Source of the DNA: Thermoproteota archaeon | GTDB taxonomy: Archaea; Thermoproteota; Bathyarchaeia; Bathyarchaeales; JAYEKF01 | Assembly (NCBI GenBank): GCA_034660895.1 | Contig: JAYEKF010000013.1 | Coordinates: 1 to 48,211, forward strand | Length of the DNA: 48,211 nt | Direction of reading: 5' to 3' | The notes under the pieces: model-generated | Databases searched by the model: none | What the model was told of the DNA's origin: nothing | The model's input: the letters and a program-made list of their open reading frames with translations, nothing else | Part shown: piece after piece, positions 4,807 through 48,014 of the stretch | How the letters are laid out: every line of letters begins with the position of its first letter | How positions within the stretch are numbered: position 1 is the first letter of the stretch | Made by a program: the position numbers and the translations under genes

Positions 4807-5481
4807 TTGAAGTTGGTTGTTCGTGTTGGTGGTTCGGTGGTGGCTTCCCCAGTTGACCCGGTTAGGATAGAGCAGTTTGTAAGTGTGTTAAAGGAGTTGA
4901 AGAAGCAGGGTCATAGGGTGGTGGCGGTTGTGGGTGGTGGCGGTTTAGCCAGGGATTTCATTGAGATTGGGCGACGGTTGGGTTTAGATGAGGCTACTCA
5001 AGATGAGGCTGCAATTTTGGTTTCTAGGCTTTTGGCCGAGTTGTTTGTAAAAAAGTTGGGTGATTTTGGCTGTGGGTTTGTCCCAATTTCCATCGAGGAT
5101 GCTACGAATTGTTTGCAGAAAAATAAAGTGGTGGTGATGGGCGGTTTGAAGCCTGGCATGACTACGGATACTGTGGCGGCGATGGTTGCTGAGCGTGTTA
5201 ACGCGGGTTTGTTGGTGAAAGCAACAGATCAAGAAGGCATTTACACTAAGGATCCGAAGAAGCATGAGGACGCAGAGAAAATTGATCGTTTGAGTTTTGA
5301 TGATTTGTTTAGATTGTTTGGGGAGGAGGGGCATAAAGTTGGGGTTCATCAGGTTCTTGATTCTGAGGCTGTGAAGATTCTTCGGAGAAGTGGAGTTAAG
5401 GTGGTTGTTGTGAGTGGTTTTAGACCTGAGAATGTTTTGTTGGCTGTCAGAGGTGTAAGGGTTGGTACTTTGGTTGAGTAG
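4807..5481 (+). CDS. pyrH: UMP kinase (archaeal type)
   Basis: 224 aa with a TTG start. Motifs: KLVVRVGGSV, VVAVVGGGGLARDFIE, GGLKPGMTTDTVAAMVAE, KATDQEGIYTKDPKK. Confidence 0.9.
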   Translation: MKLVVRVGGSVVASPVDPVRIEQFVSVLKELKKQGHRVVAVVGGGGLARDFIEIGRRLGLDEATQDEAAILVSRLLAELFVKKLGDFGCGFVPISIEDATNCLQKNKVVVMGGLKPGMTTDTVAAMVAERVNAGLLVKATDQEGIYTKDPKKHEDAEKIDRLSFDDLFRLFGEEGHKVGVHQVLDSEAVKILRRSGVKVVVVSGFRPENVLLAVRGVRVGTLVE

Positions 5482-5498
5482 TGTTTGTGTGTCTAGTC

Positions 5499-5529
5499 TC
5501 CGGAGGGCGAGGGAACCGCCCTATCCGGA
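5499..5529 (+). other. GC-rich bulged hairpin 18 nt downstream of the pyrH stop
   Basis: TCCGGAGGGCG-AGGGAAC-CGCCC-TA-TCCGGA: 11 paired positions, a 2-nt bulge and a 7-nt loop. Read directly from the sequence. Confidence 0.4.
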
Positions 5530-5737
5530 TTGTCATTCTCTAAATTCCTGTGGAAATCAAACTAAACACGCCGTTCCACTACTAAAAAGTAGTCATAGTA
5601 AAAGTCACAGCAGTTAAAGTCGCATTAACCTCGTTCTTCGCCCTTTTCTCTATTCTTAAACATACACGAAGAACCAGTTTTGGCACGTGACAAAAGTTTT
5701 TATAATTTCATAAAAGTAAAAGCCATTTTGGGTAGGT

Positions 5738-6169
5738 GTGATGATTAAAAAAATTGGTTGCATAGAAATTCCAGTGTCAGACATGGAGAAGGCTGTTGCC
5801 TTTTACGAGGGGGTGTTGGGACTTAAGAAAACTTATGAACATCCTGTATGGACGTCTTTCGATGTCGGAGGGGTAACGTTTGCTCTTGCGGCTAGTGGAA
5901 CAAAGAAGAGCAAAAAGGGCGCAAAAGTATGTACGAGCTGTTCATTATGTGTGCTTAGATTTGCAGCTGGTAAGATGAAGCAAGAAAAAGAGGCGCCTAC
6001 CGCAACTTCTGTCATCTATTTTGAGGTTGAAAATCTCGATGAGGTCTACAAAAAGTTAAAAGAACAAGGCGTAAGGTTCATCACGGAACCAAAAGAGCAA
6101 GGTTGGGGCGGTAGAACAGCCGTGATGCTTGACCCTGATAATAACATACTTGTTCTCTCCGGAGTCTGA
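5738..6169 (+). CDS. VOC (glyoxalase/bleomycin-resistance/dioxygenase) family protein
   Basis: 143 aa. N-terminal IGCIEIPVSDMEKAVAFYEGVLGL and C-terminal VIYFEVENLDEVYKKLKEQGVRF...AVMLDPDNNILVL fit the paired beta-alpha-beta-beta-beta VOC fold. It carries a Lys/Cys-rich internal insert. Confidence 0.7.
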   Translation: MMIKKIGCIEIPVSDMEKAVAFYEGVLGLKKTYEHPVWTSFDVGGVTFALAASGTKKSKKGAKVCTSCSLCVLRFAAGKMKQEKEAPTATSVIYFEVENLDEVYKKLKEQGVRFITEPKEQGWGGRTAVMLDPDNNILVLSGV

Positions 6170-14501: not shown

Positions 14502-14598
14502 CGGGCCCGAGGGGAATTGAACCCCTGACCTGCGGGTTAAGAGCCTCAACCTAGCTGTGCAGCTAGTCCGCCGCTCTACCTTGCTAAGCTACGGGCCC
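14502..14598 (-). tRNA. tRNA-Lys(CUU) with a 23-nt intron at non-canonical position 30/31
   Basis: Hand-folded from GGGCCCG-UA-GCUU-AGCAAGGUA-GAGC-G-GCGG[ACUAGCUGCACAGCUAGGUUGAG]G-CUCUUAA-CCCGC-AGGUC-AGGGG-UUCAAUU-CCCCU-CGGGCCC-G. The intron forms a BHB: central helix CGGC/GUUG, bulges GGA and AGG, inner helix CUAGCU/AGCUAG. CCA is not encoded. Confidence 0.9.
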
Positions 14599-15530: not shown

Positions 15531-15840
15531 GGGTTGGTGAGCTGGCGGACGGCTCCGAGCCGCAAGGCTTGAGGAAACTCCGCCCACAACGCAGACTTGC
15601 AACGTCGCAAGACGTAGGATGAGAATTCTGGCTCCGGAACAGAAACGAAACGTCCATCCAGCGTGTGAAGATGATGCATGCTAAGTTGCTGAAGATGCTG
15701 AATGTGAAACGGTGAAACGGCCGACCTGCAAGGTGAAAGGGCAAATAGACGCCGGTGATGTTTCTGCACGAGGCGTGGGTAGCCCGTTTAGCTGAATGCC
15801 GTCTTGAACAGAAGGCGGGTTACGACCAGCACACCAGCCC
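15531..15840 (+). ncRNA. rnpB: RNase P RNA (archaeal type A-like)
   Basis: P4 5' strand GAGGAAACUCCGCCC, conserved ACAGAAGGCGGGUUAC near the 3' end, and GUGAAA motifs. P1 pairs GGGUUGGUGAGCUGG (15531-15545) with CCAGCACACCAGCCC (15826-15840). It fills the dph5-tsr3 gap. Confidence 0.85.
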
Positions 15841-23534: not shown

Positions 23535-26414
23535 ATGAAGTTCTTAACGCATATCGAGGAAAAATGGCAGAAAAAATGGGAAAACAAGAAGATTTTTGAG
23601 GCAGACCCAGACCCAAACCGCAAGAAATGTTTTGTTACGTTCCCATATTCATACGCGAATGGCCCACTCCACGTTGGACATGGCTTCACCGCCACCCGCG
23701 TTGACGTGTACGCAAGGTTTAAGCGGATGCAAGGCTACAACGTTTTGTTTCCTTGGGCCTGGCATTGGACGGGTGAAACCATCGCCGGAGCAAGTGAACG
23801 GATTAAACAAGGAGACAAGTCGTTCATACGAGCGTTAACAGAAATCGATGGTGTACCCGAAGAGGAATTAGAGAAGCTTGTCAACCCAGTGTACATGGCT
23901 TCTTACTACACTAACGAAAACCGTGAAACTGTTAAACGCGCTGGCTTTTCCATTGACTGGAGAAGAGAGTTTCACACAACCAGCCCAACATTCAACAAGT
24001 TCATTGAGTGGCAATACAAGCATCTGAGGGAAAAGGGTTATGTGGTTAAGGGAACCCACCCAGTTGTGTGGTGTCCACATTGCCAAAGCCCAACTGGAGA
24101 CGCAGACCGACAAGAAGGAGAAGGAGTTTCGCCTGAAGAATACACGCTTATAAAATTCGAGTTCGAAAACAGCTACTTACCCGCCGCAACCTTCCGACCT
24201 GAAACCATCTACGCTGTCACTAACATGTGGATACACCCAGACGCCCATTATGTTGAAGCACAAGTTGACGACGAAAAATGGATTGTCAGTAAAGTCGCCG
24301 CTGAAAAACTGAAAGAACAAAAACGAAACGTAAAAATCATTCGCGAATTTAAGGGCAGAGAAATCGTTGGAAAAAATTTTGTAAATCCAATTAACAAACA
24401 AAGTTTGCCTATTCTGCCAGGATGGTTCGTTAACCCAAAGAACGGTACAGGCGTTGTTTACAGCGTTCCAGCTCACGCACCATACGATTGGCTAGCGTTA
24501 AGAGACTTGCAAAGGAATCCAGAATCGTTACGTGAGTTCGGCGTAGACGCCTCTGCGGTAAAAAGTATAGAGCCAATTTCTATGATTCAAGTAGAAGGTT
24601 TCGGAGAATACCCAGCGGTTGAAATTGTGGAACAATTAGAGGTGAAATATCAGAACGACCCAAAAGCGGAAGAAGCGACAAAAACTCTTTACAAGAAGGA
24701 GTTTCACGGAGGCGTCTTGAAGCAAATCTGCGGGGAATACGCTGGGAAGATGGTGCGTGAAGTTAAGGAACCGCTGATTCAAAACTTCAAACGAAAAAAC
24801 ATCGCTGACTCCATGTACGACTTACCTCAACCAGTTGTTTGCCGGTGCCTAACACCATGCATCGTTAAGGTGCTGGAAGGTCAATGGTTCCTGAAATACT
24901 CTGATAACGCATGGAAAGAAAAAACCAAAGAGGCGTTGACACAAATTTCCATTTACCCGAAAACAGCGGAACAATGGTTCATCACAATCATAGATTGGTT
25001 AAGGGAGTGGGCTTGCGCAAGGAAAACCGGTTTGGGAACCCCGCTTCCATGGAGCCCAGACTGGGTTGTGGAAACATTAAGCGACTCCACCGTTTACATG
25101 GCCTTCTACACCATTAACAAACATGTCACGCAACATGACTTAACATCGGAGCAATTAACTCCAGAAGTGCTTGACTACATTTTCCAAGGTGAAGGAAACA
25201 TTAACAATGTGGCTGAAAACTCCCGCATCAGTCCAGAAATTTTGGAATCAATGCGAAACGAGTTCCTCTACTGGTATCCAGTAGACTTGAGAGTTTCAGG
25301 CAAGGAGCTTGTGCCAAACCATTTAACATTCTACATTTTCCACCATGTGGCGCTATTTCCACCAGAACATTGGCCAAAAGCAATCGGCGTCAACGGAATG
25401 CTGATGAGTGAGGGAAACAAAATGTCTAAGTCCAAAGGAAACTTCGTCACGCTGAAAAGCGCCATAGAACAGTATGGAGCAGACCCTACACGATGCGCAC
25501 TGCTACTCGGCGCAGAAGAAATGGATGACCCGGACTGGAGAAAAGAAAACGTCCGAGACGTGAGAAACAAAATTGAATCCTTCTACAAACTAGCTGAAAA
25601 CATTGTAAAAACTGCAGAAGAAGAAAAAACTGGACATTTAGAAAAGTGGCTAACCAGCAGACTGCAACATCAAATCAAAACAGTAACTGAAAGCCTTGAA
25701 GAAATGAAAACCCGAACAGCCGTGGAAACCGCTTTATTCGAGGTGTGGAAAGACATCCGTTGGTACACACGAAGAAAAGGAACAGCAAACACAAAGACGC
25801 TGAAAAAAACCTTGAACACTTGGGTGCGACTGCTCGCTCCGTTCATACCCCACATCTGCGAGGAAATATGGAATAAAATGCATGAAGAAGAACTTGTTTC
25901 ATCAGCCGACTGGCCTAAATACAACGACAAAAAAGTGAACATTCAAGCTGAGGAAAACGAGCTTCTAATTAAAAACGTGTTCAGCGACACTCAAAACATC
26001 ATCCAAGCAACAAAAATCAAACCAAAAAAAATATGCTACTACGTCGCAACCCCATGGAAATGGAAAGCCTACCTAACATCATTAAAGAAAGCCATTAACA
26101 AACGGGCGACCGTGAGTAGCTTAATGAAAGAATTAACGGCTGACCCCGAGTTAAAAAAGAAGGTGAAAGACATTGCAAAATTCATCCCCAAAATTCTCAA
26201 CGACGTCAACCAAGCCTCAGACGACAAAAAACAAAGGAGAGTTGAAATAGGCATCTTGGATGAAAACATGGTCCTGAAAGAGGCGAAGAGTTTCTTCCAA
26301 CGAGAATTTGATGCAGAAATCTACGTTTACCAAGAAGCCAACCCGCAACGTTACGACCCAAAACAGAGAAGCCGAATAGCTAGACCGTACAGACCCGCCA
26401 TCTACATAGAATAA
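23535..26414 (+). CDS. leuS: leucine--tRNA ligase (archaeal type)
   Basis: 959 aa with a HIGH-type motif (PLHVGHGFT) and KMSKS (KMSKSKGN). Confidence 0.95.
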   Translation: MKFLTHIEEKWQKKWENKKIFEADPDPNRKKCFVTFPYSYANGPLHVGHGFTATRVDVYARFKRMQGYNVLFPWAWHWTGETIAGASERIKQGDKSFIRALTEIDGVPEEELEKLVNPVYMASYYTNENRETVKRAGFSIDWRREFHTTSPTFNKFIEWQYKHLREKGYVVKGTHPVVWCPHCQSPTGDADRQEGEGVSPEEYTLIKFEFENSYLPAATFRPETIYAVTNMWIHPDAHYVEAQVDDEKWIVSKVAAEKLKEQKRNVKIIREFKGREIVGKNFVNPINKQSLPILPGWFVNPKNGTGVVYSVPAHAPYDWLALRDLQRNPESLREFGVDASAVKSIEPISMIQVEGFGEYPAVEIVEQLEVKYQNDPKAEEATKTLYKKEFHGGVLKQICGEYAGKMVREVKEPLIQNFKRKNIADSMYDLPQPVVCRCLTPCIVKVLEGQWFLKYSDNAWKEKTKEALTQISIYPKTAEQWFITIIDWLREWACARKTGLGTPLPWSPDWVVETLSDSTVYMAFYTINKHVTQHDLTSEQLTPEVLDYIFQGEGNINNVAENSRISPEILESMRNEFLYWYPVDLRVSGKELVPNHLTFYIFHHVALFPPEHWPKAIGVNGMLMSEGNKMSKSKGNFVTLKSAIEQYGADPTRCALLLGAEEMDDPDWRKENVRDVRNKIESFYKLAENIVKTAEEEKTGHLEKWLTSRLQHQIKTVTESLEEMKTRTAVETALFEVWKDIRWYTRRKGTANTKTLKKTLNTWVRLLAPFIPHICEEIWNKMHEEELVSSADWPKYNDKKVNIQAEENELLIKNVFSDTQNIIQATKIKPKKICYYVATPWKWKAYLTSLKKAINKRATVSSLMKELTADPELKKKVKDIAKFIPKILNDVNQASDDKKQRRVEIGILDENMVLKEAKSFFQREFDAEIYVYQEANPQRYDPKQRSRIARPYRPAIYIE

Positions 26415-26511
26415 AAATAAACTTAACCATAAAGGAAAACGCAAAACCATCCGAAACAACAGTGAATGAAAGAATTATATCAAAGAAAACCAAAGACTAT
26501 GCCCGTTAAAT

Positions 26512-26622
26512 GGGCCCGTGGCGCAGCATGGATTTCTCCCACCAGAAAGCGCGTCGGCCTTCTAATTGGATGACAAAGGGGATAGCCGAAGATCCGGGGT
26601 TCAAATCCCCGCGGGCCCGCCA
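26512..26622 (+). tRNA. tRNA-Arg(UCU) with a canonical 19-nt anticodon-loop intron (37/38), a 16-nt D-loop insert, and encoded CCA
   Basis: GGGCCCG-UG-GCGC-AGCAUGGA[UUUCUCCCACCAGAAA]GCGC-G-UCGGC-CUUCUA[AUUGGAUGACAAAGGGGAU]A-GCCGA-AGAUC-CGGGG-UUCAAAU-CCCCG-CGGGCCC-G-CCA. The anticodon intron shows a BHB (CUUC/GGGG helix, bulges UAA and AUA). The D-loop insert is a hairpin for which I could not find a clean BHB. Confidence 0.85.
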
Positions 26623-26830
26623 AGAAGGTTAATTCCAAAGATTTGTTTCTCCCTTGAGTTTATGAAGCTGGAACATGAAGCAAAAATCTCCATTTTCTCA
26701 TGTGAAGAAGATGCTTGCTGAGGCTAAAGTTCCCTAGACTGAAAACATAGGAGAAAATAACGATTAACAGAAACGTTTAAGCACTCAAAGGAGAAAAGTT
26801 AAACGGTTAAGCCAACGCTGAACTTGTGTT

Positions 26831-26876
26831 GGAGGCGTGTCACCGCCTAGCCCATAATGAGGGGTAGAAAGAGAAC
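26831..26876 (+). repeat. leader-module copy A (degenerate)
   Basis: GGAGGCGTGTCACCGCCTAGCCCATAATGAGGGGTAGAAAGAGAAC, upstream of the 26950 membrane-protein gene. Confidence 0.8.
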
Positions 26877-26949
26877 AACAATTGGAGGCAAAAATAGTGT
26901 GGAAACTGACAAAGGGTAACGTTGGAATTGTGTTGGGCTTTCTGGGGGA

Positions 26950-27309
26950 GTGATGTCTATTCTAGAATCTGGTGTTATCTTAGCTTACGCCTATGAGATG
27001 GGTCGTATCGGTGAGGGTTGGGGGCTGGTGGGTCTCGGAGTGGGCATCCTAGCAACGATAGGAGTCGTGATGGTGTACAAGGGCATCAGACTTGCTGGTG
27101 CACTGATAACATTCTTCTCAACCCTGGTAGGTCAGCTGAGCGGCGGAGCTATCGGGCTTGCCCTATGGGTGCTAATTGGTGGTCCAACAGCTCGCGCAAT
27201 ATTCAACACGGGCTTGAGATTTGCTGTTCCCAGCGGGACGATACTCAGTTTAATCGGCAGCGTTACTATACTGGCTGCCATCTGGAAAAGCAGAAGGGAG
27301 GTGGCCTAG
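26950..27309 (+). CDS. hypothetical Gly-rich integral membrane protein (about 4 TM)
   Basis: 119 aa (ATG at 26953). GWGLVGLGVGILATIGVVMV, GALITFFSTLVGQL, GLALWVLIGG, ILSLIGSVTILAAIW. Confidence 0.5.
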   Translation: MMSILESGVILAYAYEMGRIGEGWGLVGLGVGILATIGVVMVYKGIRLAGALITFFSTLVGQLSGGAIGLALWVLIGGPTARAIFNTGLRFAVPSGTILSLIGSVTILAAIWKSRREVA

Positions 27310-27426
27310 CCCTAATTGAAGGGTAGAAAGAGAACCATGAAAAATAAAATTGGGAAAGAAAATGAGAAAAGTTGAATGGAACCGGAAAACGATATCAGTT
27401 GTTTTGTTAGCAGTGGTTTTATCAAT
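27297..27426 (+). repeat. leader-module copy B (extends into the signal-peptide coding region of 27362)
   Basis: From CCTAGCCCTAATTGAAGGGTAGAAAGAGAACCATGAAAAATAAAATTGGGAAAGAAAATGAGAAAAGTTGAATGGAACCGGAAAAC... it is near-identical to copy C over ~120 nt. The 5' hairpin part is shortened and overlaps the stop of the preceding gene. Confidence 0.85.
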
Positions 27427-28348
27427 AAGTCTTCTGATTGGATTCCAATTAACTAATACTGGGATGAATCCAGAACTCGAAACCGTTACGGTGGAGGCGG
27501 TCCGTTGGCAGATTGATAGACCTTCAGATGATGTTCACTTTAACGAGAGAATCGAAAAAGCTAGTACTAACGATTGGGCGTCAGTGGGTATTGGTGTGGA
27601 GATATGCACCTACCATGAAGATGAGAGCAATTACCCGTATGAACATAGAGATGGCGTTGGCCTTAATGTTGATTTCAACGCAACGGTGCTTCCGGGTTTC
27701 ACCGCTTCCACCACGGTTAGGTTCCGTCCGGACGAGAAAGCCAGCACATACGCTTCTTCGACGTATATGGTGAAACACAACCTCACAGTTAAAAGAATGA
27801 AGCGGTTTGGCACCAATACCAGCGAAGCATACATCTTAGCCACAGCCACAAACTCATCCTGCTCTCTCAAGACACGGAGTGACTGGGTGTTCATGGATCA
27901 AGATTTGGAGGAGCATCAACTGAAAGTGGTGTTCGAGTTCACCTATCGAAACGCCACTGTACACAGGAAAATCATACTTCCCATAATATTGAATATGGTG
28001 CAGGATGTGGGGGAAACCTTTGACGCAGCGAAGAATATGACGGTTGGTGAACATCGAGGATGCCTTGACGGGGTGGATTACATCGACATGTACGCCATAA
28101 ACGTGCAGAACGGGGAAACCATAAACCTCACTATGACCCCGCCGGAGGACGTCAATTACGACCTGTACCTCTACAACCCCGATCGACAAGAGGTAGCCAA
28201 CTCCACGCAAAACGGAAACGCAGCCGAATCCATCACTTACCAAGCCAACCAAACTGGAACATGGTACGTAAGGGTAAAGCTAACCGAGCGCATGGGGTAC
28301 CCGAACAAGGGAATCTATGATCTCAATCTGCAGGTGCGGGCGCCATGA
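27362..28348 (+). CDS. secreted or membrane-anchored protein with a C-terminal PPC-like (pre-peptidase C-terminal) domain
   Basis: Real start is probably ATG 27362 (MRKVEWNRKTISVVLLAVVLSISLL, signal/anchor). The C-terminus DGVDYIDMYAINVQNGETINLTMTPPEDVNYDLYLYNPDRQEVANS...GTWYVRVKL fits the PPC pattern. Many NxS/T sequons. Confidence 0.6.
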   Translation: MRKVEWNRKTISVVLLAVVLSISLLIGFQLTNTGMNPELETVTVEAVRWQIDRPSDDVHFNERIEKASTNDWASVGIGVEICTYHEDESNYPYEHRDGVGLNVDFNATVLPGFTASTTVRFRPDEKASTYASSTYMVKHNLTVKRMKRFGTNTSEAYILATATNSSCSLKTRSDWVFMDQDLEEHQLKVVFEFTYRNATVHRKIILPIILNMVQDVGETFDAAKNMTVGEHRGCLDGVDYIDMYAINVQNGETINLTMTPPEDVNYDLYLYNPDRQEVANSTQNGNAAESITYQANQTGTWYVRVKLTERMGYPNKGIYDLNLQVRAP

Positions 28349-28833
28349 AAAAGATGAAAAAACTTTGGAAAATACTCTCTGTCGTTCTAGTGATTGCTTT
28401 AATTAGTGTAGCTGGCATAGCCGTTTACGCCTTCTACGGACCACCACCAATAACGTTTAACCTGTTAACCGATAAAGAAACTTACCAACTTGGGGAACCA
28501 GTAAACATAACTATCACGCTGAAAAATCAGGCTCCTTGGCCTATCACAGTAAGTTGTTCTCTGTGGTGCGATTTCCACATCAAAGATGAAAGTGGTGACG
28601 TTTATTCACCGGGTTTTCTATATTATCCTGGATGGCACAGTTTCACCTTATCGTCTCTAGAACTAAAAAGCAACCGGTTCACGTGGAAACAAGTAAATAA
28701 CCTTAAGTTAGATGGTAACGAAATACCTGTTACCGCTGGAACTTACAAAATCGTGGCTTCCCCCACTTTCGAATACAACGGACGAGAATACCGCTTCGAA
28801 CGTGAAGTAATAATAATCATTCAGGGAGGGTGA
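28345..28833 (+). CDS. secreted Ig-like protein, possibly a BsuPI-type proteinase-inhibitor fold
   Basis: 162 aa. ATGA start/stop overlap with the upstream gene and an N-terminal anchor ILSVVLVIALISVAGIAVYAF. TDKETYQLGEPVNITITLKNQAPWPITV...DFHIKDESGDVY...FTWKQV...GTYKIVAS resembles the BsuPI (intracellular proteinase inhibitor) pattern as I recall it. Confidence 0.45.
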   Translation: MKKMKKLWKILSVVLVIALISVAGIAVYAFYGPPPITFNLLTDKETYQLGEPVNITITLKNQAPWPITVSCSLWCDFHIKDESGDVYSPGFLYYPGWHSFTLSSLELKSNRFTWKQVNNLKLDGNEIPVTAGTYKIVASPTFEYNGREYRFEREVIIIIQGG

Positions 28834-28839
28834 GAAACG

Positions 28840-28893
28840 ATGAAAAGCCAGCAGTATTCTGCTGGAGGCGTGTCATCGCCTAGCCCTAATTGA
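28840..28893 (+). other. 17-codon upstream ORF inside leader-module copy C (MKSQQYSAGGVSSPSPN)
   Basis: ATG 28840 lies 6 nt after the stop of the preceding gene and behind GGAGGGTGA. The stop TGA 28891-28893 is inside the conserved AATTGAAGGG core. Confidence 0.3.
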
Positions 28894-29000
28894 AGGGCAG
28901 AAAGAGAACCATGAAAAAATAAAATTGGAAAGAAAATGAGAAAAGTTGAATGGAACCGGAAAACAGTTTCAGTTGTTTTGTTAGCAGTGGTTTTACCAAT
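28864..29000 (+). repeat. leader-module copy C (hairpin + core + signal-peptide coding region of 28936)
   Basis: GGAGGCGTGTCATCGCCTAGCCCTAATTGAAGGGCAGAAAGAGAACCATGAAAAAATAAAATTGGAAAGAAAATGAGAAAAGTTGAATGGAACCGGAAAAC...TTGTTTTGTTAGCAGTGGTTTTA. Confidence 0.9.
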
Positions 29001-29715
29001 CAGCTTGGTGGCCGCGTTTGGATTAACTGGCATGTTTGCAGGCTCAAACGGTTCTCAGTGGCCTCTAACCATCACGTTAGACAAAGATGTGTACTATGTA
29101 GATGATAGAATGCACATCACCATAACGAACGTTTCAAACAAGACGTTAGAGTTTAGGAACACCAATTACGACATGACTTACTTCCGATGGACCTTTGAGG
29201 GGTGGAAGTGGCACGATTCAGTTCCCGGTGGTGCTATGCTTACATATCTTAAACCGGGAGAGACAGCGCATGTTACCTGGCAGTTAGACGGTTACAAGCT
29301 TTTTCCACCCGGAAGATACCGTGTGGGAAACCAATACTATGAAGTGTACACCGGGTTCGTAGTCATTGCAGGTTCAAAATCTCAGTGGCCTCTAACCATC
29401 AAGCTGGATAAGTACGAGTATTATCCAGGAGAGACGATGCACATCACCATAACGAACGTTTCAAACAAGACGTTAAAGTTTAACAACACCAGTTACAACA
29501 TGACTTACTTCCAATTTACCTTTGAGGGGTGGAAGTGGTACGATGCAGTTCCAGGAGAGGCAGTAATTGTGGATCTTAAACCGGGAGAGACAGCGCATGT
29601 TACATATACGTTAGGCGGTCATGTACACGCGCCTTTCCCGCCAGGAAGATACCGTGTGGGAAACCAATACTATGAAGTGTACACCGGGTTCGTAGTCAAA
29701 GAGAAACCCAGCTAG
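28936..29715 (+). CDS. secreted protein made of two tandem ~109-aa Ig-like (BsuPI-like) repeats
   Basis: 259 aa. Signal/anchor MRKVEWNRKTVSVVLLAVVLPISLV is nearly identical to that of 27362. Two copies of SQWPLTIxLDK..YY....MHITITNVSNKTLxF.NT.Y.MTYF..TFEGWKW.D.VPG......LKPGETAHVT..L.G....PPGRYRVGNQYYEVYTGFVV. Confidence 0.6.
   Translation: MRKVEWNRKTVSVVLLAVVLPISLVAAFGLTGMFAGSNGSQWPLTITLDKDVYYVDDRMHITITNVSNKTLEFRNTNYDMTYFRWTFEGWKWHDSVPGGAMLTYLKPGETAHVTWQLDGYKLFPPGRYRVGNQYYEVYTGFVVIAGSKSQWPLTIKLDKYEYYPGETMHITITNVSNKTLKFNNTSYNMTYFQFTFEGWKWYDAVPGEAVIVDLKPGETAHVTYTLGGHVHAPFPPGRYRVGNQYYEVYTGFVVKEKPS
29053..29703 (+). repeat. intragenic tandem duplication, period 327 nt
   Basis: TCTCAGTGGCCTCTAACCATCA starts at 29053 and again at 29380. 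One identical block is at least 52 nt: AGATACCGTGTGGGAAACCAATACTATGAAGTGTACACCGGGTTCGTAGTCA at 29314-29365 and 29647-29698. A 39-nt identical block ATGCACATCACCATAACGAACGTTTCAAACAAGACGTTA occurs in both units. Confidence 0.9.
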
Positions 29716-29726
29716 GTGAATCAACA

Positions 29727-32276
29727 ATGAAAAAAAGTTTTCTAGCGATATTTGTTTCCTTGATACTCAGCATGCCTGTGTGCATGGTGGCGGTTAATTC
29801 AGTAGTTGCTGAGGAGACGCTAAGTTATTCTGAAAAAGCCCTACATCACATCAGTCAAAAATATGCCGTGCCACCAGAATCTCTGATGTTGGTCAACGGG
29901 AGATACGCAAACTATCCGCTTTCTGGTCGACAAATTTGGAGAGGCAAGGTGTTAGACCTTGAAAGTCACAGGGTGTTCGGAGTGAACTTTGACGAAGCCG
30001 GGGACATCCTTGACGACTTGAGTTCTATCGAGGAAAACGAGAAGCTGGAGTATCTAACTAGATATGGAAAGTTGACGAAAGACCTACACGAACGACTCCT
30101 GAACATGGCCAAGCAAGACACGTTAAAGGTAGGATTATGGTTAAAACGTACTGACGAGTTGGTGGCTATGCCTTATCGCTCAGCGAACCAAACACAATTT
30201 AAGGAGTACATGGCCAAGCAAGTAAATGCGTGTCGTTTGGCGGAGAAAAGTGTTATAAAAGCTATCAGAGCGAGGGGGTTCAACATTCTTTACGCCTCCA
30301 AGTTTGCGCCCGTAGTGTTTTCTGAACTGTCCAAGCAGGCAATCCTAGAAATAGAAAATAGGTTGGATGTGGAGAAGGTGTTTCTGTCAAGAACGTATAA
30401 GCCTCAGATAAACACCGCAGCCGATACTGAAAGAGCTAATTTGGTGTGGCCTTACGGAATTGATGGAAGCGGAGTTAAAATCGCCGTTGTAGAGGATGAT
30501 GGGGTCGCGTTCGCAAACCCACATCTTGCTGACGGAAGTTACTTTGATTCAGATAACAAAAGGATAGATGGTCACGCGACTGCTGTTGCAGGCGTGATCG
30601 CAAGCACCAATAACACTTACCGAGGAATCGCACACGGCGCGCCAGGAATACTAAGCGCAAACGCAGAGACTTACGACTCTTTCGACATCATGGACGCCAC
30701 TGACTGGGCTTTGAATAATAGTACTAGAATCATAAACAACAGTTGGGGGAAGGATACCGGTTTAGAAATGGACATTTTAGACGAATACTTCGATTACGTA
30801 GTAAGGAACTATAGGGTGACCGTGACCGTTGCAGCTGGTAACAACAGAGACCCCCATCGGACAAAAACTGGTAACGTCCAATCTCCTGGTCTGGGATGGA
30901 ATGTTATCACTGTGGGTGCGATAGATGACAAGGATACTTCAAGTTGGCTGGATGATGACATGGCGCCATATTCAAGCTTCAAAGACCCCGTATCTACTAA
31001 TGGCGACCGAGAGAAACCTGAAGTTGTTGCAGTGGGTAACAACAAAGGCAACACTCCAATGTATAGTACTTTAACATCTGACCCGTGGGTTGGAAAGACT
31101 GGTAATGGAACAAGTCTCGCTGCCCCAGCTGTTGCCGGTGAGGCTGCTTTACTGATGCAGACGAAAGAGTGGCTAAGCTGGTGGCCGGAGACAGTTAAGG
31201 CAACGATTATGGCAACTGCTTGGCATAACATAGAAGGCTTCAGTAGATTAAGCATGTTTGACGGAGCTGGAGCGATAGATTCATGGAGTGCGTACCGAAC
31301 AGTAAAGAATAACCAAATTGTTGGTGAAATCATCGGCTCAGAAGATTTACCAAAGAGCTACACGTTTGATGCCTCCGAGGGCGGCAGGGTTAGAGTGGCC
31401 ATCGCATGGGATTCGCATGATGATGTTGCAGACGAGTTGTTGGCAGACCTCGACCTGTTCATATGGGATTCGCCAAAAACCCACATTATTACTGCCTCAG
31501 CTAGCTACGATAACAGTTATGAGATAGTCGAGTTTACAGCTCCGTACACCGGAACTTATATGGCGGAAGTGTATCCCAGCAGGTTCGACGGAGACTACGA
31601 ATACCTCGGATTTGCATGGAACCAACGAGAACACCGTTTAACCATCAAAGCTGGTTTAGGTGGAACAACCGACCCTGCACCTAGAACCTACACGCACGTG
31701 GAAGGAACTGATGTGAAGGTTACAGCCACTCCAACATGGAACGGTTTCAGCTTTAGCTATTGGGTATTAGATGGAAAAGTGAAGTACGCCAACCCGATAA
31801 CTGTTACCATAGACTCCGACCACACGTTGAAAGCATGGTTTTCTCCCAACGGCGGAGGCTCCGAACCGTGTCCCACATTGTTCTCTTGGAACGGCACGGA
31901 CTACGTGGACTACGGAGTCGTAGACATTCACAATCCAACGGGTGAAGACGTTGTTAGAGAAGTTCCAATTCTAGCGGAAGATGTGGGCGTAAGCAATTGT
32001 AAGGCAACATTTAGGCTTAGGGAAGGCTGGGAAGGCTTAAACTACTCAGAGTCAGTTATTGACCAAGTGAAACTGTACGCAGATGGAGAACTATGTCCGC
32101 TAATAAAAGCTGTATACAGCGAACAAGGAAACGTTCTGCCACAACTTTTAGCTAGCGACGATGTTAGAGTGCAAATGCTCCTCCTAGAAACAACGGACTT
32201 AACTTTTATTGTGCCGTACCAAAACGTTCAAAGCTTCACATTCGTAATCGAAGGATGCAACATGATTAAACTGTAA
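29727..32276 (+). CDS. secreted subtilisin-like serine protease (peptidase S8) with C-terminal accessory domains
   Basis: 849 aa with signal MKKSFLAIFVSLILSMPVCMVAVNSVVA. Catalytic Asp region IAVVEDDGV, His GHATAVAGVIAS, Asn IINNSWG, Ser GTSLAAPAVAGEAALL. Downstream are a PPC/P-domain-like segment (LADLDLFIWDSP...GTYMAEVY) and two further beta-rich domains. SD-like GGTGA lies 4 nt (positions -8 to -4) upstream of the ATG. Confidence 0.9.
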   Translation: MKKSFLAIFVSLILSMPVCMVAVNSVVAEETLSYSEKALHHISQKYAVPPESLMLVNGRYANYPLSGRQIWRGKVLDLESHRVFGVNFDEAGDILDDLSSIEENEKLEYLTRYGKLTKDLHERLLNMAKQDTLKVGLWLKRTDELVAMPYRSANQTQFKEYMAKQVNACRLAEKSVIKAIRARGFNILYASKFAPVVFSELSKQAILEIENRLDVEKVFLSRTYKPQINTAADTERANLVWPYGIDGSGVKIAVVEDDGVAFANPHLADGSYFDSDNKRIDGHATAVAGVIASTNNTYRGIAHGAPGILSANAETYDSFDIMDATDWALNNSTRIINNSWGKDTGLEMDILDEYFDYVVRNYRVTVTVAAGNNRDPHRTKTGNVQSPGLGWNVITVGAIDDKDTSSWLDDDMAPYSSFKDPVSTNGDREKPEVVAVGNNKGNTPMYSTLTSDPWVGKTGNGTSLAAPAVAGEAALLMQTKEWLSWWPETVKATIMATAWHNIEGFSRLSMFDGAGAIDSWSAYRTVKNNQIVGEIIGSEDLPKSYTFDASEGGRVRVAIAWDSHDDVADELLADLDLFIWDSPKTHIITASASYDNSYEIVEFTAPYTGTYMAEVYPSRFDGDYEYLGFAWNQREHRLTIKAGLGGTTDPAPRTYTHVEGTDVKVTATPTWNGFSFSYWVLDGKVKYANPITVTIDSDHTLKAWFSPNGGGSEPCPTLFSWNGTDYVDYGVVDIHNPTGEDVVREVPILAEDVGVSNCKATFRLREGWEGLNYSESVIDQVKLYADGELCPLIKAVYSEQGNVLPQLLASDDVRVQMLLLETTDLTFIVPYQNVQSFTFVIEGCNMIKL

Positions 32277-32373
32277 ACCTCTAAACTTCCCCAATTTCCT
32301 CTTTTTTTTGTTGTTTGAAGTTTAAGTGATCAGAAAACCATTCTAGAAGACACTTCCAAAACCCTTAAAATAA

Positions 32374-32381
32374 TTTAAATA
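32374..32381 (+). promoter_or_regulatory. TATA-like box TTTAAATA about 25 nt upstream of the uORF ATG 32403
   Basis: AT-rich box with spacing appropriate for an archaeal promoter that would start transcription at or near the uORF. An analogous AATAATAATCATT lies ~27 nt upstream of uORF ATG 28840. Confidence 0.3.
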
Positions 32382-32402
32382 GTAAAGTTGAATGGGGAAA
32401 CC

Positions 32403-32465
32403 ATGAAGCATACGCAAACCAACGGTAAATCCTTTGGAGGCGTGTCACCGCCTAGCCCATATTGA
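32403..32465 (+). other. 20-codon upstream ORF inside leader-module copy D (MKHTQTNGKSFGGVSPPSPY)
   Basis: It ends at the TGA of the conserved ATTGAAGGG core, in the same relative frame as uORF 28840..28893, and shares the C-terminus GGVS(S/P)PSP(N/Y). Confidence 0.3.
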
Positions 32466-32508
32466 AGGGTAGAAAGAGAACCTAAGTAAAATTGGAAAGA
32501 AAATGAGA
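32436..32508 (+). repeat. leader-module copy D
   Basis: GGAGGCGTGTCACCGCCTAGCCCATATTGAAGGGTAGAAAGAGAACCTAAGTAAAATTGGAAAGAAAATGAGA, directly upstream of the 32503 gene. Confidence 0.9.
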
Positions 32509-32742
32509 GAAATACCAGAAGCTGAGAAGACGAGGTATAAGTGGATAGCGTGGATAGGGCTTCCTTTAGGGATTATCTTGTTGTTGCTGACGATAAATAT
32601 GGAATACCACACGTATGTGATAGATGCAATTGGAATTTTAGGGTTTGTAGCGATAGTATTTGGGGTGGTAAGTGCCTTCGCGTTAGCCTATGCCCACTGT
32701 TCTTCCTCTAAAAAGGAGAGACTTGTGAAGATTCACAATTGA
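32503..32742 (+). CDS. hypothetical small membrane protein (2 TM)
   Basis: 79 aa. WIAWIGLPLGIILLLLTI and IDAIGILGFVAIVFGVVSAFALAY. Its stop codon is the TGA of core copy E. Confidence 0.45.
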   Translation: MREIPEAEKTRYKWIAWIGLPLGIILLLLTINMEYHTYVIDAIGILGFVAIVFGVVSAFALAYAHCSSSKKERLVKIHN

Positions 32743-32759
32743 AGGGTAGAAAGAGAACC
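32737..32759 (+). repeat. leader-module copy E (core only)
   Basis: AATTGAAGGGTAGAAAGAGAACC, identical to the core in copy B and, from ATTGAAGGG onward, to that in copy D. It lies upstream of the 32837 gene. Confidence 0.8.
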
Positions 32760-32836
32760 TAAAAAAGGATGGAGGGAAACAACGCGGTTAAATCAACGGT
32801 GAATTATGTCGAAGTTGGGTACTTATCTTAGCGGTT

Positions 32837-33304
32837 GTGTTCCCAGTGTCCTTCTTCCTTGGTTTGAATGTAACCTTAGATTTAAGTTGGCGTATTGTCG
32901 TCACACTCGAAGCGAATCCACACCGCTACTTGGGTTACATACGGGATGCATTTCTTTATTTGATTTCGCCTCCAGCCGTGGGCTTAGCGTTCAGCATCAT
33001 CGGATTCATAAGGGAGAGAAAATCTCCAACCGGAATTTTTGATAATTGGCGGCTTCACCTAACGGTTATTGGCGCCTTTTTCTTCTTTTGGGGCGCCCTC
33101 CAACTTCGGTGGACGTACAACAGATATTGTGGTGTTACATGTCCTGTAGACATTACGAACCTCATTCCAGCAGTTTATGCAACGGTAGCGGTAGGGCATA
33201 TTCTTTGGCTATTTGCTGGTATCCTCTTTATGCTTCCACCCGTATTTAAAATACTGCAGAATAAAAACATTGTAAGCCAGAAAGGTGGAATAAATGGAAG
33301 ATAA
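32837..33304 (+). CDS. hypothetical integral membrane protein (about 4 TM)
   Basis: 155 aa with a GTG start (start uncertain; an in-frame stop is at 32789). It has several hydrophobic helices. Confidence 0.45.
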   Translation: MFPVSFFLGLNVTLDLSWRIVVTLEANPHRYLGYIRDAFLYLISPPAVGLAFSIIGFIRERKSPTGIFDNWRLHLTVIGAFFFFWGALQLRWTYNRYCGVTCPVDITNLIPAVYATVAVGHILWLFAGILFMLPPVFKILQNKNIVSQKGGINGR

Positions 33305-33693
33305 AAACTTTCTTGGAAAATGCGATCGGTGGAAAGTAAAACTGGCGTCAATTAACCCCTATTACAGAACTCCGTGAAAAATACGAGAGTCTAATGCAAT
33401 CACCTGAACGGGTGGGTCTGTCCACTTCCAAATCTCCGTGTTAACCCAGAATTTTCCGTTGCCCTTAACCACATCGCCTAGTTTGTAACACTGAACGCCG
33501 CTGCGTCGCTAAAACTTATGGTGAATCAACATACACTATCCCATTTGTAACATAGAAACTTAAGAAACAAAACATTTTTTGGAAAGTAAACTTTACGGAA
33601 CTTTGGTTGTATGTGGTTAAAGCGTTTAGGCAAATGCTGGAGAAGTTATATCTTTAAAATGGAAACTGTAAACATGAGGATGAGGTGAAGTAA

Positions 33694-46488: not shown

Positions 46489-47987
<1,499 letters not shown>

Positions 47988-48014
47988 TTGTTGGTTTGGG
48001 AATGTACGGTATGT

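Follow-up and report, generated by a model that had tools for sequence, protein, structure and literature searches.

Leader copies and genes of the island

The DNA analysed here, all 48,211 nucleotides (nt) of contig JAYEKF010000013.1 from a Bathyarchaeia assembly (GCA_034660895.1) and referred to below as the window, carries an island of secreted- and membrane-protein genes preceded by copies of one short element, a putative messenger RNA (mRNA) leader. A preliminary description of the island had reported five copies, A to E, and these repeats are real. The core ATTGAAGGGTAGAAAGAGAACC was found on the + strand only, at 26856, 27315, 28889, 32461 and 32738 with 3, 0, 1, 0 and 0 mismatches respectively; five co-oriented copies of this 22-nt core were thus present where none is expected by chance (100 shuffles). 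A core scan and a covariance model both gave these five copies and no others in the 48 kb, and a repeat finder recovered the same repeat families. Other details of the description were reproduced as well: the hairpin AGGCG-TGTCA(C/T)-CGCCT is carried by copies A, C and D, the 3' extension AAAATTGG(G)AAAGAAAATGAGA by copies B, C and D, and, over the stretch that spans core and signal peptide, copies B and C match at 104 of 112 positions (92.9%). Its starts for the element, however, mark the second hairpin, P2; the full-length copies (A, C and D) start some 20–25 nt further 5' and include a hairpin, P1, that had been missed.

All copies and genes of the island lie on the + strand. Copy A (26805..26881) is a full-length copy in 5' untranslated region (UTR) position, scoring 81.3 bits with our first covariance model (R1) and 80.5 bits with the second (R2). 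It consists of P1 (26812-26832), P2 (26833-26848), a third hairpin, P3 (26850-26865), with the degenerate loop ATAATGAG, and an 11-nt tail, AGAAAGAGAAC (26866-26876), and it heads gene 1, which has a Shine–Dalgarno (SD) sequence, GGAGG, at 26884-26888 and a GTG start codon at 26898. Copy B (27284..27340; 43.2 bits) is intercistronic and truncated at its 5' end: P1 and half of P2 are missing (P2 minus 7 nt, GGAGGTGGCCT), only P3 (27309-27324) remains in the fold, and the tail follows at 27325-27335. The stop codon of gene 1, TAG at 27307-27309, lies inside copy B, which heads the gene for a PPC-domain protein (ATG 27362). Copy C (28841..28914; 89.6 bits) is full length and intercistronic, with P1 at 28848-28865, P2 at 28866-28881, P3 at 28883-28898 and the tail at 28899-28909, and it heads a double Ig-like gene (ATG 28936) together with an S8 protease gene. 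Copy D (32412..32486; 85.1 bits), again full length and in 5' UTR position, comprises P1 (32419-32437, one mismatch), P2 (32438-32453), P3 (32455-32470) and the tail (32471-32481) and heads the gene for a 79-amino-acid membrane protein (ATG 32503). Copy E (32738..32759) consists of the last 22 nt only (AATTGAAGGGTAGAAAGAGAACC; tail 32748-32758), an exact core that reached just 18.6 bits with the covariance model. It is intercistronic, holds the TGA stop codon (32740-32742) of the 79-amino-acid gene, and heads the last membrane-protein gene (ATG 32768). Tail-only copies equivalent to E are present in other contigs.

Gene content was as previously described. Gene 1 (26898..27309) encodes a membrane protein, gene 2 (27362-28348) a secreted protein with a PPC domain, gene 3 (28345-28833) a 162-amino-acid protein with a weak BsuPI-like match, gene 4 (28936-29715) a 259-amino-acid protein with two Ig-like Big_14 domains, and gene 5 (29727-32276) an S8 subtilase with PPC and Flg_new_2 domains, genes 2 to 5 being assigned with Pfam. 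The open reading frames (ORFs) of two small membrane proteins, genes 6 (32503-32742) and 7 (32768-33304), complete the island. Genes 1 and 7 are split by apparent frameshifts at G-runs. Searches with tblastn, using a homolog from locus L029 for gene 1 and one from L050 for gene 7, followed gene 1 through two frames with a switch at about 26941-26945 and gene 7 across a frameshift at about 32817-32819, and placed the real starts at GTG 26898 and ATG 32768. With these corrected starts, all five copies end 9–26 nt before a start codon. Either the assembly is wrong at these homopolymers or the frameshifts are real and the island is decaying.

Each copy had been thought to head a transcription unit. 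Three copies (B, C and E) are intercistronic by position, and putative signals separate only two units: a T8 run at 32302-32309, resembling the oligo-T terminators of archaea, and a TATA-like box, TTTAAATA, at 32374-32381, which precedes the P1 hairpin of copy D by about 40 nt. This arrangement of sequence signals suggests one unit running from copy A through gene 1, copy B, genes 2 and 3, and copy C to genes 4 and 5, and another running from copy D through gene 6 and copy E to gene 7.

A putative leader family in Bathyarchaeia

A core scan of one genome per species gave 16 loci in 14 Bathyarchaeia metagenome-assembled genomes (MAGs), and a gapped scan of metagenomes matched at least 120 contigs. 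Model R1 found at least 146 copies in metagenome contigs. There were 161 tail-bearing copies, of which 152 were unique; these numbers, like the 144 copies, 136 loci and 27 multi-copy contigs referred to below, are counts among the matches listed. The family totals at least about 170 copies in Bathyarchaeia MAGs and sediment metagenomes. R2 added no new strong copies, only truncated ones. Conservation extends about 45 nt 5' of the core and includes a hairpin whose arms differ between loci yet stay complementary; RNAalifold predicted three consecutive hairpins for the family. The consensus, about 75 nt long, reads (GG)UUAAGCC, P1 (7 bp, loop URANU), P2 (AGGCG UGUCAC CGCCU), A, P3 (GCCC UAANNGAA GGGC), the tail and an A-rich stretch. 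All but one of the 11 tail positions are purines, and the tail is invariant. The whole P2-P3-tail block is nearly invariant across MAGs in which P1 and the flanks have fully diverged.

Plain paralogy, in which the repeats would be functionless leftovers of local gene duplication, is hardly credible for such a family. It would account for copies B and C, which share leader and signal peptide at 93% identity, but over 100 contigs have the same block in front of genes that are not homologous, and the block has stayed near-invariant while P1 and the flanks diverged. Nor is the element a genome-wide dispersed repeat, the outcome that the preliminary description had named as refuting its observation: species-representative MAGs hold one or two loci each. 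Low copy number and an orientation that is always sense to the next gene do not fit a repetitive extragenic palindrome, a miniature inverted-repeat transposable element or an IS200-type element, and the consensus, which begins GGTTAAGCC and ends GAGAAC, has no terminal inverted repeats. Copies are spaced 277–3572 nt apart with genes between them, and no cas domains were found among the scanned neighbours, which does not fit repeats of the clustered regularly interspaced short palindromic repeat (CRISPR) type. A viral origin was considered and dropped, the viral collection holding one genuine copy.

Rfam 15 gave no match to positions 26300-33400 of the window at E <= 1, and a permissive search with copy C alone gave best E-values of 1.7 and 9.4 (12.3 and 10.7 bits against gathering thresholds of 33 and 42). 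Full-text literature searches returned no description of the element. The leader family is apparently undescribed, and its novelty is that of a family outside Rfam and the searched literature, structured mRNA leaders themselves being a known kind. What distinguishes it is that it is tied to exported proteins, common to non-homologous genes, and coupled to a conserved micro-protein gene. In the data examined the family is restricted to Bathyarchaeia, and bacterial matches to the core are unrelated. A 20-nt part of the core matches a conserved stretch in nine Caldilineaceae genomes (L007-L009, L012, L013, L017, L022, L026 and L030); the flanks of that stretch are unrelated to the archaeal element, and it is apparently an unrelated conserved sequence.

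P1 pairing and the transcribed strand

All seven pairs of P1 covary. Across the alignment, 173 cells held double changes compared with 54 +/- 6 in shuffles, 96% of cells were paired, and the signal collapsed once the register was slid. P1 cells comprised 625 Watson–Crick pairs, 91 G·U pairs and 8 A·C pairs; such an excess of G·U over A·C (binomial p = 6e-19) is expected only if the sense strand folds, which argues that this region and the gene behind it are transcribed as one. The covariation thus indicates that P1 forms in the sense transcript. For copy C the minimum free energy structure was exactly P1-P2-P3 (z = -4.6); copy D folds likewise but less stably, B retains P3 only and E forms none of the hairpins. 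P2, the AGGCG/CGCCU hairpin in which compensatory changes had been anticipated, shows no covariation; the compensatory changes sit in P1. Copies found via the P3/tail side or via the protein of a linked gene, X (see below), showed the same lack of compensation in P2 and P3, and the 5' P2 arm of decayed copies is simply no longer complementary. A search for loop–loop, closing-helix and long-range contacts found no covarying pair beyond P1. The family has the conserved 5' position and orientation of a structured cis-acting mRNA leader, with compensatory pairing in P1 only.

The invariance of both hairpin arms could also be explained at the DNA level. P2 (AGGCG N6 CGCCT) and P3 (GCCC N8 GGGC) are inverted repeats with both arms invariant and no compensation, and they might be palindromic operators for a dimeric transcription factor, forming together with a transcription factor B recognition element (BRE)/TATA-like box a mobile promoter/operator in front of unrelated genes. 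Such boxes (CAGAAAYGTTTAAAC) do occur before P1, with peaks at about 13 nt (about 30% of copies) and about 38 nt (about 17%), and may well be promoters. The core itself lacks the features of an archaeal BRE/TATA element: its sole A/T-rich stretch is the P3 loop, and this tolerates a central G/C (TAAGCGAA) and so is not a TATA box. Strand-specific pairing in P1 argues that the region is transcribed and selected as RNA, many copies are intercistronic, lack a TATA-like box and overlap the ORF before them, and the most conserved part is the non-palindromic tail. On balance we consider a purely DNA-level module quite unlikely.

Two further similarities concern P2. The P1/P2 junction (26831-26848 in copy A and the same positions in C and D) reads GGAGG and is SD-like, and the P2 loop with its 3' arm, UCACCGCCU, resembles the 3' end of the 16S rRNA of the same organism, AUCACCUCCU. 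Judged by its letters, P2 may be an internal mimic of an SD:anti-SD duplex, or the likeness may be coincidence. A translation-enhancer model, with the tail or core paired to 16S rRNA, was rejected; duplex energies were no better than those of shuffled sequences.

Position, linker and cargo

Start codons were found mostly 10–35 nt after the tail. Their frame relative to the tail was unbiased (51/43/41), and the idea that translation from the UUG in the P3 loop makes the tail encode a basic N-terminal extension was therefore discarded. The linker between element and start codon was 87% purine (60% A) compared with 58% purine in ordinary genes, and 59% of linkers contained SD-like motifs compared with 33% for ordinary genes. 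Predicted unpaired probability in the ribosome-binding region was 0.66 compared with 0.44 for background starts (p = 6e-29). An N-terminal hydrophobic segment was present in 89% of ORFs behind a leader and in 32% of background ORFs (p = 8e-37); most led ORFs without such a segment look like wrong ORF calls. The cargo is diverse and mostly without a Pfam family. Where families could be assigned they included peptidases (A4, M28 and M12), PKD, NosD/beta-helix and Ig-like proteins and the zinc-ribbon DUF6487. In all 27 of the 27 multi-copy contigs the copies were co-oriented, each heading one to three genes. No antisense partner was found in the window.

The element is not confined to 5' UTRs. 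Forty-three of the 161 copies lay directly behind an ORF of at least 60 amino acids, and in 25 of these the stop codon was inside the element, which shows use between cistrons as well. Truncation always removes the 5' end first. Of the truncated copies, 13 are unique, and these, some of them tail only, still precede an SD and mostly exported-protein starts; all 14 tail occurrences outside full-length elements were truncated copies, most of them preceding ORFs on the same strand. Because truncation always proceeds from the 5' end and tail-only copies still head genes, the tail appears to be the most indispensable part.

Short upstream ORFs run through P1-P3 in copies C (28841-28894) and D (32403-32465) and stop at the UGA in the P3 loop. 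Their peptides would be MKSQQYSAGGVSSPSPN and MKHTQTNGKSFGGVSPPSPY; the SD of the ORF in copy C, GGGAGGGTGA, is a strong one. The same stops terminate long upstream ORFs of other contigs, whose C-termini read, for example, ...GGVSPPSPN. We rejected the idea that the block is itself the coding end of a peptide (...GGVSPPSPN*), since loop-length variants shift the frame and head copies lack an ORF.

The frequent intercistronic position, with upstream stops inside the element, would suit an RNA processing site. On this reading a sequence-specific endonuclease recognizes P3 (and P2) and cuts at the base, so that polycistronic transcripts are split, 3' ends are left with protective hairpins and each downstream part begins with a uniform purine leader. 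An invariant hairpin followed by an invariant single-stranded 'handle' and the co-orientation of arrays also fit, and Cas6 sites in CRISPR repeats have a similar hairpin–handle geometry. The case is one of analogy, however; no nuclease gene is linked to the arrays, and tail-only copies offer no hairpin to recognize. We judge this reading to be unlikely.

A small gene linked to the leader

Many first copies are preceded by a gene of 47 amino acids, X (MKKAVIIVKLVPES...KIEKVTVSRNV), and X is itself often preceded and overlapped by a gene of 36 amino acids, Y (...EGYSERAIREIVRWYE). The X family is narrow and unannotated, with 47 clusters that are all at least 68% identical. When loci were chosen by X protein alone, from unrelated neighbourhoods, a leader began 2–27 nt after the X stop codon in 5/5. 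Intact X was found at L020, L058, L064, L067, L132 and L160-L165; at L161 the stop codon has been lost and X reads into the leader. Pfam, NCBIfam and PDB sequence searches gave no informative match for X or Y, Y having only a weak one to RecX_HTH1, and the AlphaFold model of X is a single helix with a predicted local distance difference test score of 75. Comparison with intact X identified a remnant (pseudogene) in the window at 26703..26782 (+), with TAG at 26735-26737 where relatives have TGG. Its end coincides with a conserved BRE/TATA-like box, CAGAAACGTTTAAGC (26768-26782, +), about 30 nt upstream of copy A. More generally, the final ~15 nt of X (CAGAAAYGTTTAAAC) look like a BRE/TATA box and persist where the rest of X has gone, the window included.

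Tight linkage to X is among the observations that would suit a regulatory switch, in which P2-P3-tail is an aptamer or operator RNA for a small molecule, a second messenger or a protein such as X and toggles translation of a secretome regulon. Loops as well as stems are invariant at the nucleotide level across MAGs with diverged P1 and flanks, and the leader heads functionally diverse exported proteins, as second-messenger riboswitches such as cyclic di-GMP-I also do; guanidine-II riboswitches provide a precedent for tandem small invariant hairpins. The architecture speaks against a switch: there are three independent hairpins and no multi-helix junction, pseudoknot or long-range covariation. 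Nor was an alternative pairing found that could hide the SD; what follows the tail is purine-only and predicted open, and no oligo-U terminator follows the element. Copies without P1, P2 or even P3 keep a tail that is 100% identical and still head genes, so the most conserved part is not the aptamer. A regulatory switch is, in our view, rather unlikely.

Probable exchange of genes through the leader

Ninety pairs of copies share at least 130 nt of upstream sequence. Of these pairs, 57 lose homology within 15 nt after the tail and another 21 within 60 nt. Conversely, 50 of the 64 pairs that share a downstream gene break at the element's 5' edge. Near-identical pairs also located exchange points within or close to the element, at AAGCC|P1 (pairs L098/L132 and L067/L145), at P1|P2 (pairs L072/L104 and L064/L131) and 3–4 nt after the tail (pair L020/L048). 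Several exchange points in one conserved block point to homologous exchange, with no single site-specific crossover. Read from these junctions, the leader marks the joints of reshuffled exported-protein genes.

The preliminary description had treated absence of the element from related islands as evidence against it, and here the outcome was divided. A leader lies upstream of distant PPC homologs (L031, L083 and L109) but not at the closest ones, L158 and L159 (58% and 50% identity), which stand among housekeeping genes behind ordinary TATA-like boxes.

A cassette system, with an attC-like or another kind of site-specific recombination site, would likewise produce arrays in which mostly short ORFs, all in one orientation, alternate with a conserved element at which synteny breaks; the island would then be a cassette array. 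A full leader copy in L010 (4235-4308) has no gene behind it and adjoins a tyrosine recombinase on the opposite strand (5164-6021; Phage_integrase, E = 6e-13). In favour of this reading are this 'empty' terminal copy beside a recombinase and the usual lack of a nearby integrase in archaeal integron arrays (6 IntI for 539 attC sites; PMC9668308). Yet none of 144 copies carries attC core sites (RYYYAAC / GTTRRRY) on either strand, the element forms three short hairpins instead of one long hairpin, and exchange points fall at several positions where a single crossover point would be expected. A tyrosine recombinase was found near the element at only 2/136 loci (many contigs being short). The fixed 9–35 nt spacing to the start codon, with its purine/SD linker, points to a role in expression, and copy number per genome is low. 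We therefore hold a cassette recombination site to be very unlikely. In a separate observation, a homologous recombinase gene lies about 1.8 kb from the leader in L045. Integration at tRNA genes was likewise dropped: 11 tRNAs in 737 kb of element-bearing loci are no more than background.

A proposed portable leader module

We favour, with moderate confidence, the interpretation that the element is a portable mRNA leader module of Bathyarchaeia, one that controls exported-protein expression and is reassorted through homologous exchange. Both alternatives offered by the preliminary description, a common cis-regulatory element and a cassette spread by duplication or recombination, are thereby supported in part, as a conserved cis element transcribed with exported-protein genes and as a cassette-like module reassorted by recombination. 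The module would be transcribed in the sense of the following gene and used in 5' UTRs (A and D) as well as between cistrons (B, C and E). It may be regarded as three parts: the 7-bp P1 hairpin, free in sequence while keeping its pairing and URANU loop; the near-invariant block with its two short G+C-rich hairpins, P2 and P3; and the invariant tail, which continues, up to the start codon, as a purine-rich linker containing an SD-like motif. Its function is most likely post-transcriptional. The 5' hairpins could provide a defined 5' structure that is nuclease-resistant or processable, and pairing of the ribosome-binding site would be prevented by the purine-rich tail and linker. A conserved trans-acting factor probably recognizes the invariant P2-P3-tail block; it may be an RNA-binding protein, possibly the X protein that heads many arrays, or a processing nuclease. 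Conservation of the block would in turn let copies recombine, so that upstream contexts and downstream cargo reassort, giving mosaics such as the five-copy island of the window.

Several points weigh against this interpretation. P2, P3 and the tail are conserved as sequence, with no compensatory changes, and as perfect inverted repeats P2 and P3 could equally be protein-binding sites in duplex DNA; the scan patterns fixed one arm each of P2 and P3, which weakens the covariation test for these hairpins. The fetched loci were found via the conserved sequence itself, so conservation across the family is overstated. The higher predicted openness of the ribosome-binding region is largely a consequence of purine content, and mis-called background starts may contribute to it. 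Where a TATA-like box lies about 13 nt before P1, transcription would start inside or just after P1, around the P1/P2 junction. Leader status is read from sequence rather than from transcript 5' ends. Finally, no trans factor was identified: X has no family or structure match and a poor model, and it has decayed in the window.

A bolder version of the favoured interpretation, which we advance tentatively and consider rather unlikely, is that the leader, X and possibly Y form a dedicated post-transcriptional control system for exported proteins of Bathyarchaeia. X or another ligand would bind P2-P3-tail and gate translation or processing, and the block would act as a handle that plugs new genes into the regulon. 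If true, archaea would thereby have their first described riboregulatory system specific to a secretome.

To our knowledge, conserved cis-acting RNA elements are rare in archaea, and we know of essentially no work on gene regulation in the abundant but barely cultivated Bathyarchaeia, whose extracellular peptidases are thought to be important for protein degradation in sediments. The leader marks, and probably governs, a set of mostly uncharacterized secreted and membrane proteins. Being easily found by sequence, it gives a handle for defining this set across genomes. It may also offer a handle on how archaeal mRNAs for exported proteins are stabilized, processed and translated and on modular gene reassortment via a common leader, and it could be tried as a portable expression part.

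Comparison with known systems

One likeness is to bacterial 5'-UTR leaders that stabilize mRNA or aid translation, such as the Bacillus subtilis aprE leader, the 5' hairpin of Escherichia coli ompA and the STAB-SD of cryIIIA. In these, 5' hairpins are followed by an open, purine/SD-rich ribosome-binding region, and they serve highly expressed exported proteins; aprE encodes subtilisin, and the island of the window includes an S8 subtilase. The bacterial leaders are gene-specific, whereas the Bathyarchaeia module is invariant in sequence, stands before unrelated genes, is also used between cistrons, and is archaeal. Like the cyclic di-GMP-I (GEMM) and guanidine-II (mini-ykkC) riboswitches, the leader is a conserved structure next to the start codon; its exported cargo is similarly diverse, and its hairpins are likewise very small and invariant. 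Unlike them, it lacks a junction or pseudoknot, an evident expression platform and an Rfam match, covaries in P1 only, and is most conserved in its single-stranded tail.

In Mycoplasma vsp/vlp/vsa loci, too, divergent clustered surface genes follow non-coding 5' sequence that is nearly identical, at times together with the signal peptide (compare copies B and C), and recombination runs through the common part. They are, however, single families with phase or antigenic variation, whereas the cargo of the leader is non-homologous and the common part a structured RNA. Putative mobile promoters resemble the leader in placing homologous upstream sequence before non-homologous genes; the strand-specific RNA pairing and intercistronic copies of the leader, in contrast, show that its common part is transcribed. 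Integron attC arrays, including the Vibrio cholerae repeats and archaeal integrons (PMC9668308), also combine co-oriented short uncharacterized ORFs with synteny breaks and often lack integrases nearby. The leader differs from attC in having no R''/R' core sites, no single long hairpin and several exchange points, and, whereas attC lies at the 3' end of a cassette, the leader lies at a fixed short distance 5' of start codons.

Other features of the window and its relatives

The 259-amino-acid protein of gene 4 contains an internal tandem duplication (29053-29292 and 29380-29619; 82% over 240 nt) that corresponds to its two Big_14 domains; an exact look-up of this protein in other assemblies gave no match. 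A C-terminal motif, ...F(V/Q)IEG(C/N)N(M/I)..., occurs just before the stop codon in the S8 protease (32200-32276) and in large secreted proteins of leader-headed units at L031, L065, L107 and L131, which suggests a common C-terminal domain or sorting signal.

An unannotated tRNA-Arg(UCU) gene lies at 26512-26622 (+). Its D-loop carries an insert of about 14–16 nt, and a second insert, of 19 nt, follows the anticodon loop; the intact gene was missed by both ARAGORN and Rfam, and ARAGORN called it once both inserts had been removed by hand. The same contig carries a 97-nt tRNA gene, probably intron-containing, at 14502-14598 (-), an archaeal RNase P RNA at 15537-15834 (+) and a complete 16S rRNA gene at 46489-47988 (-).

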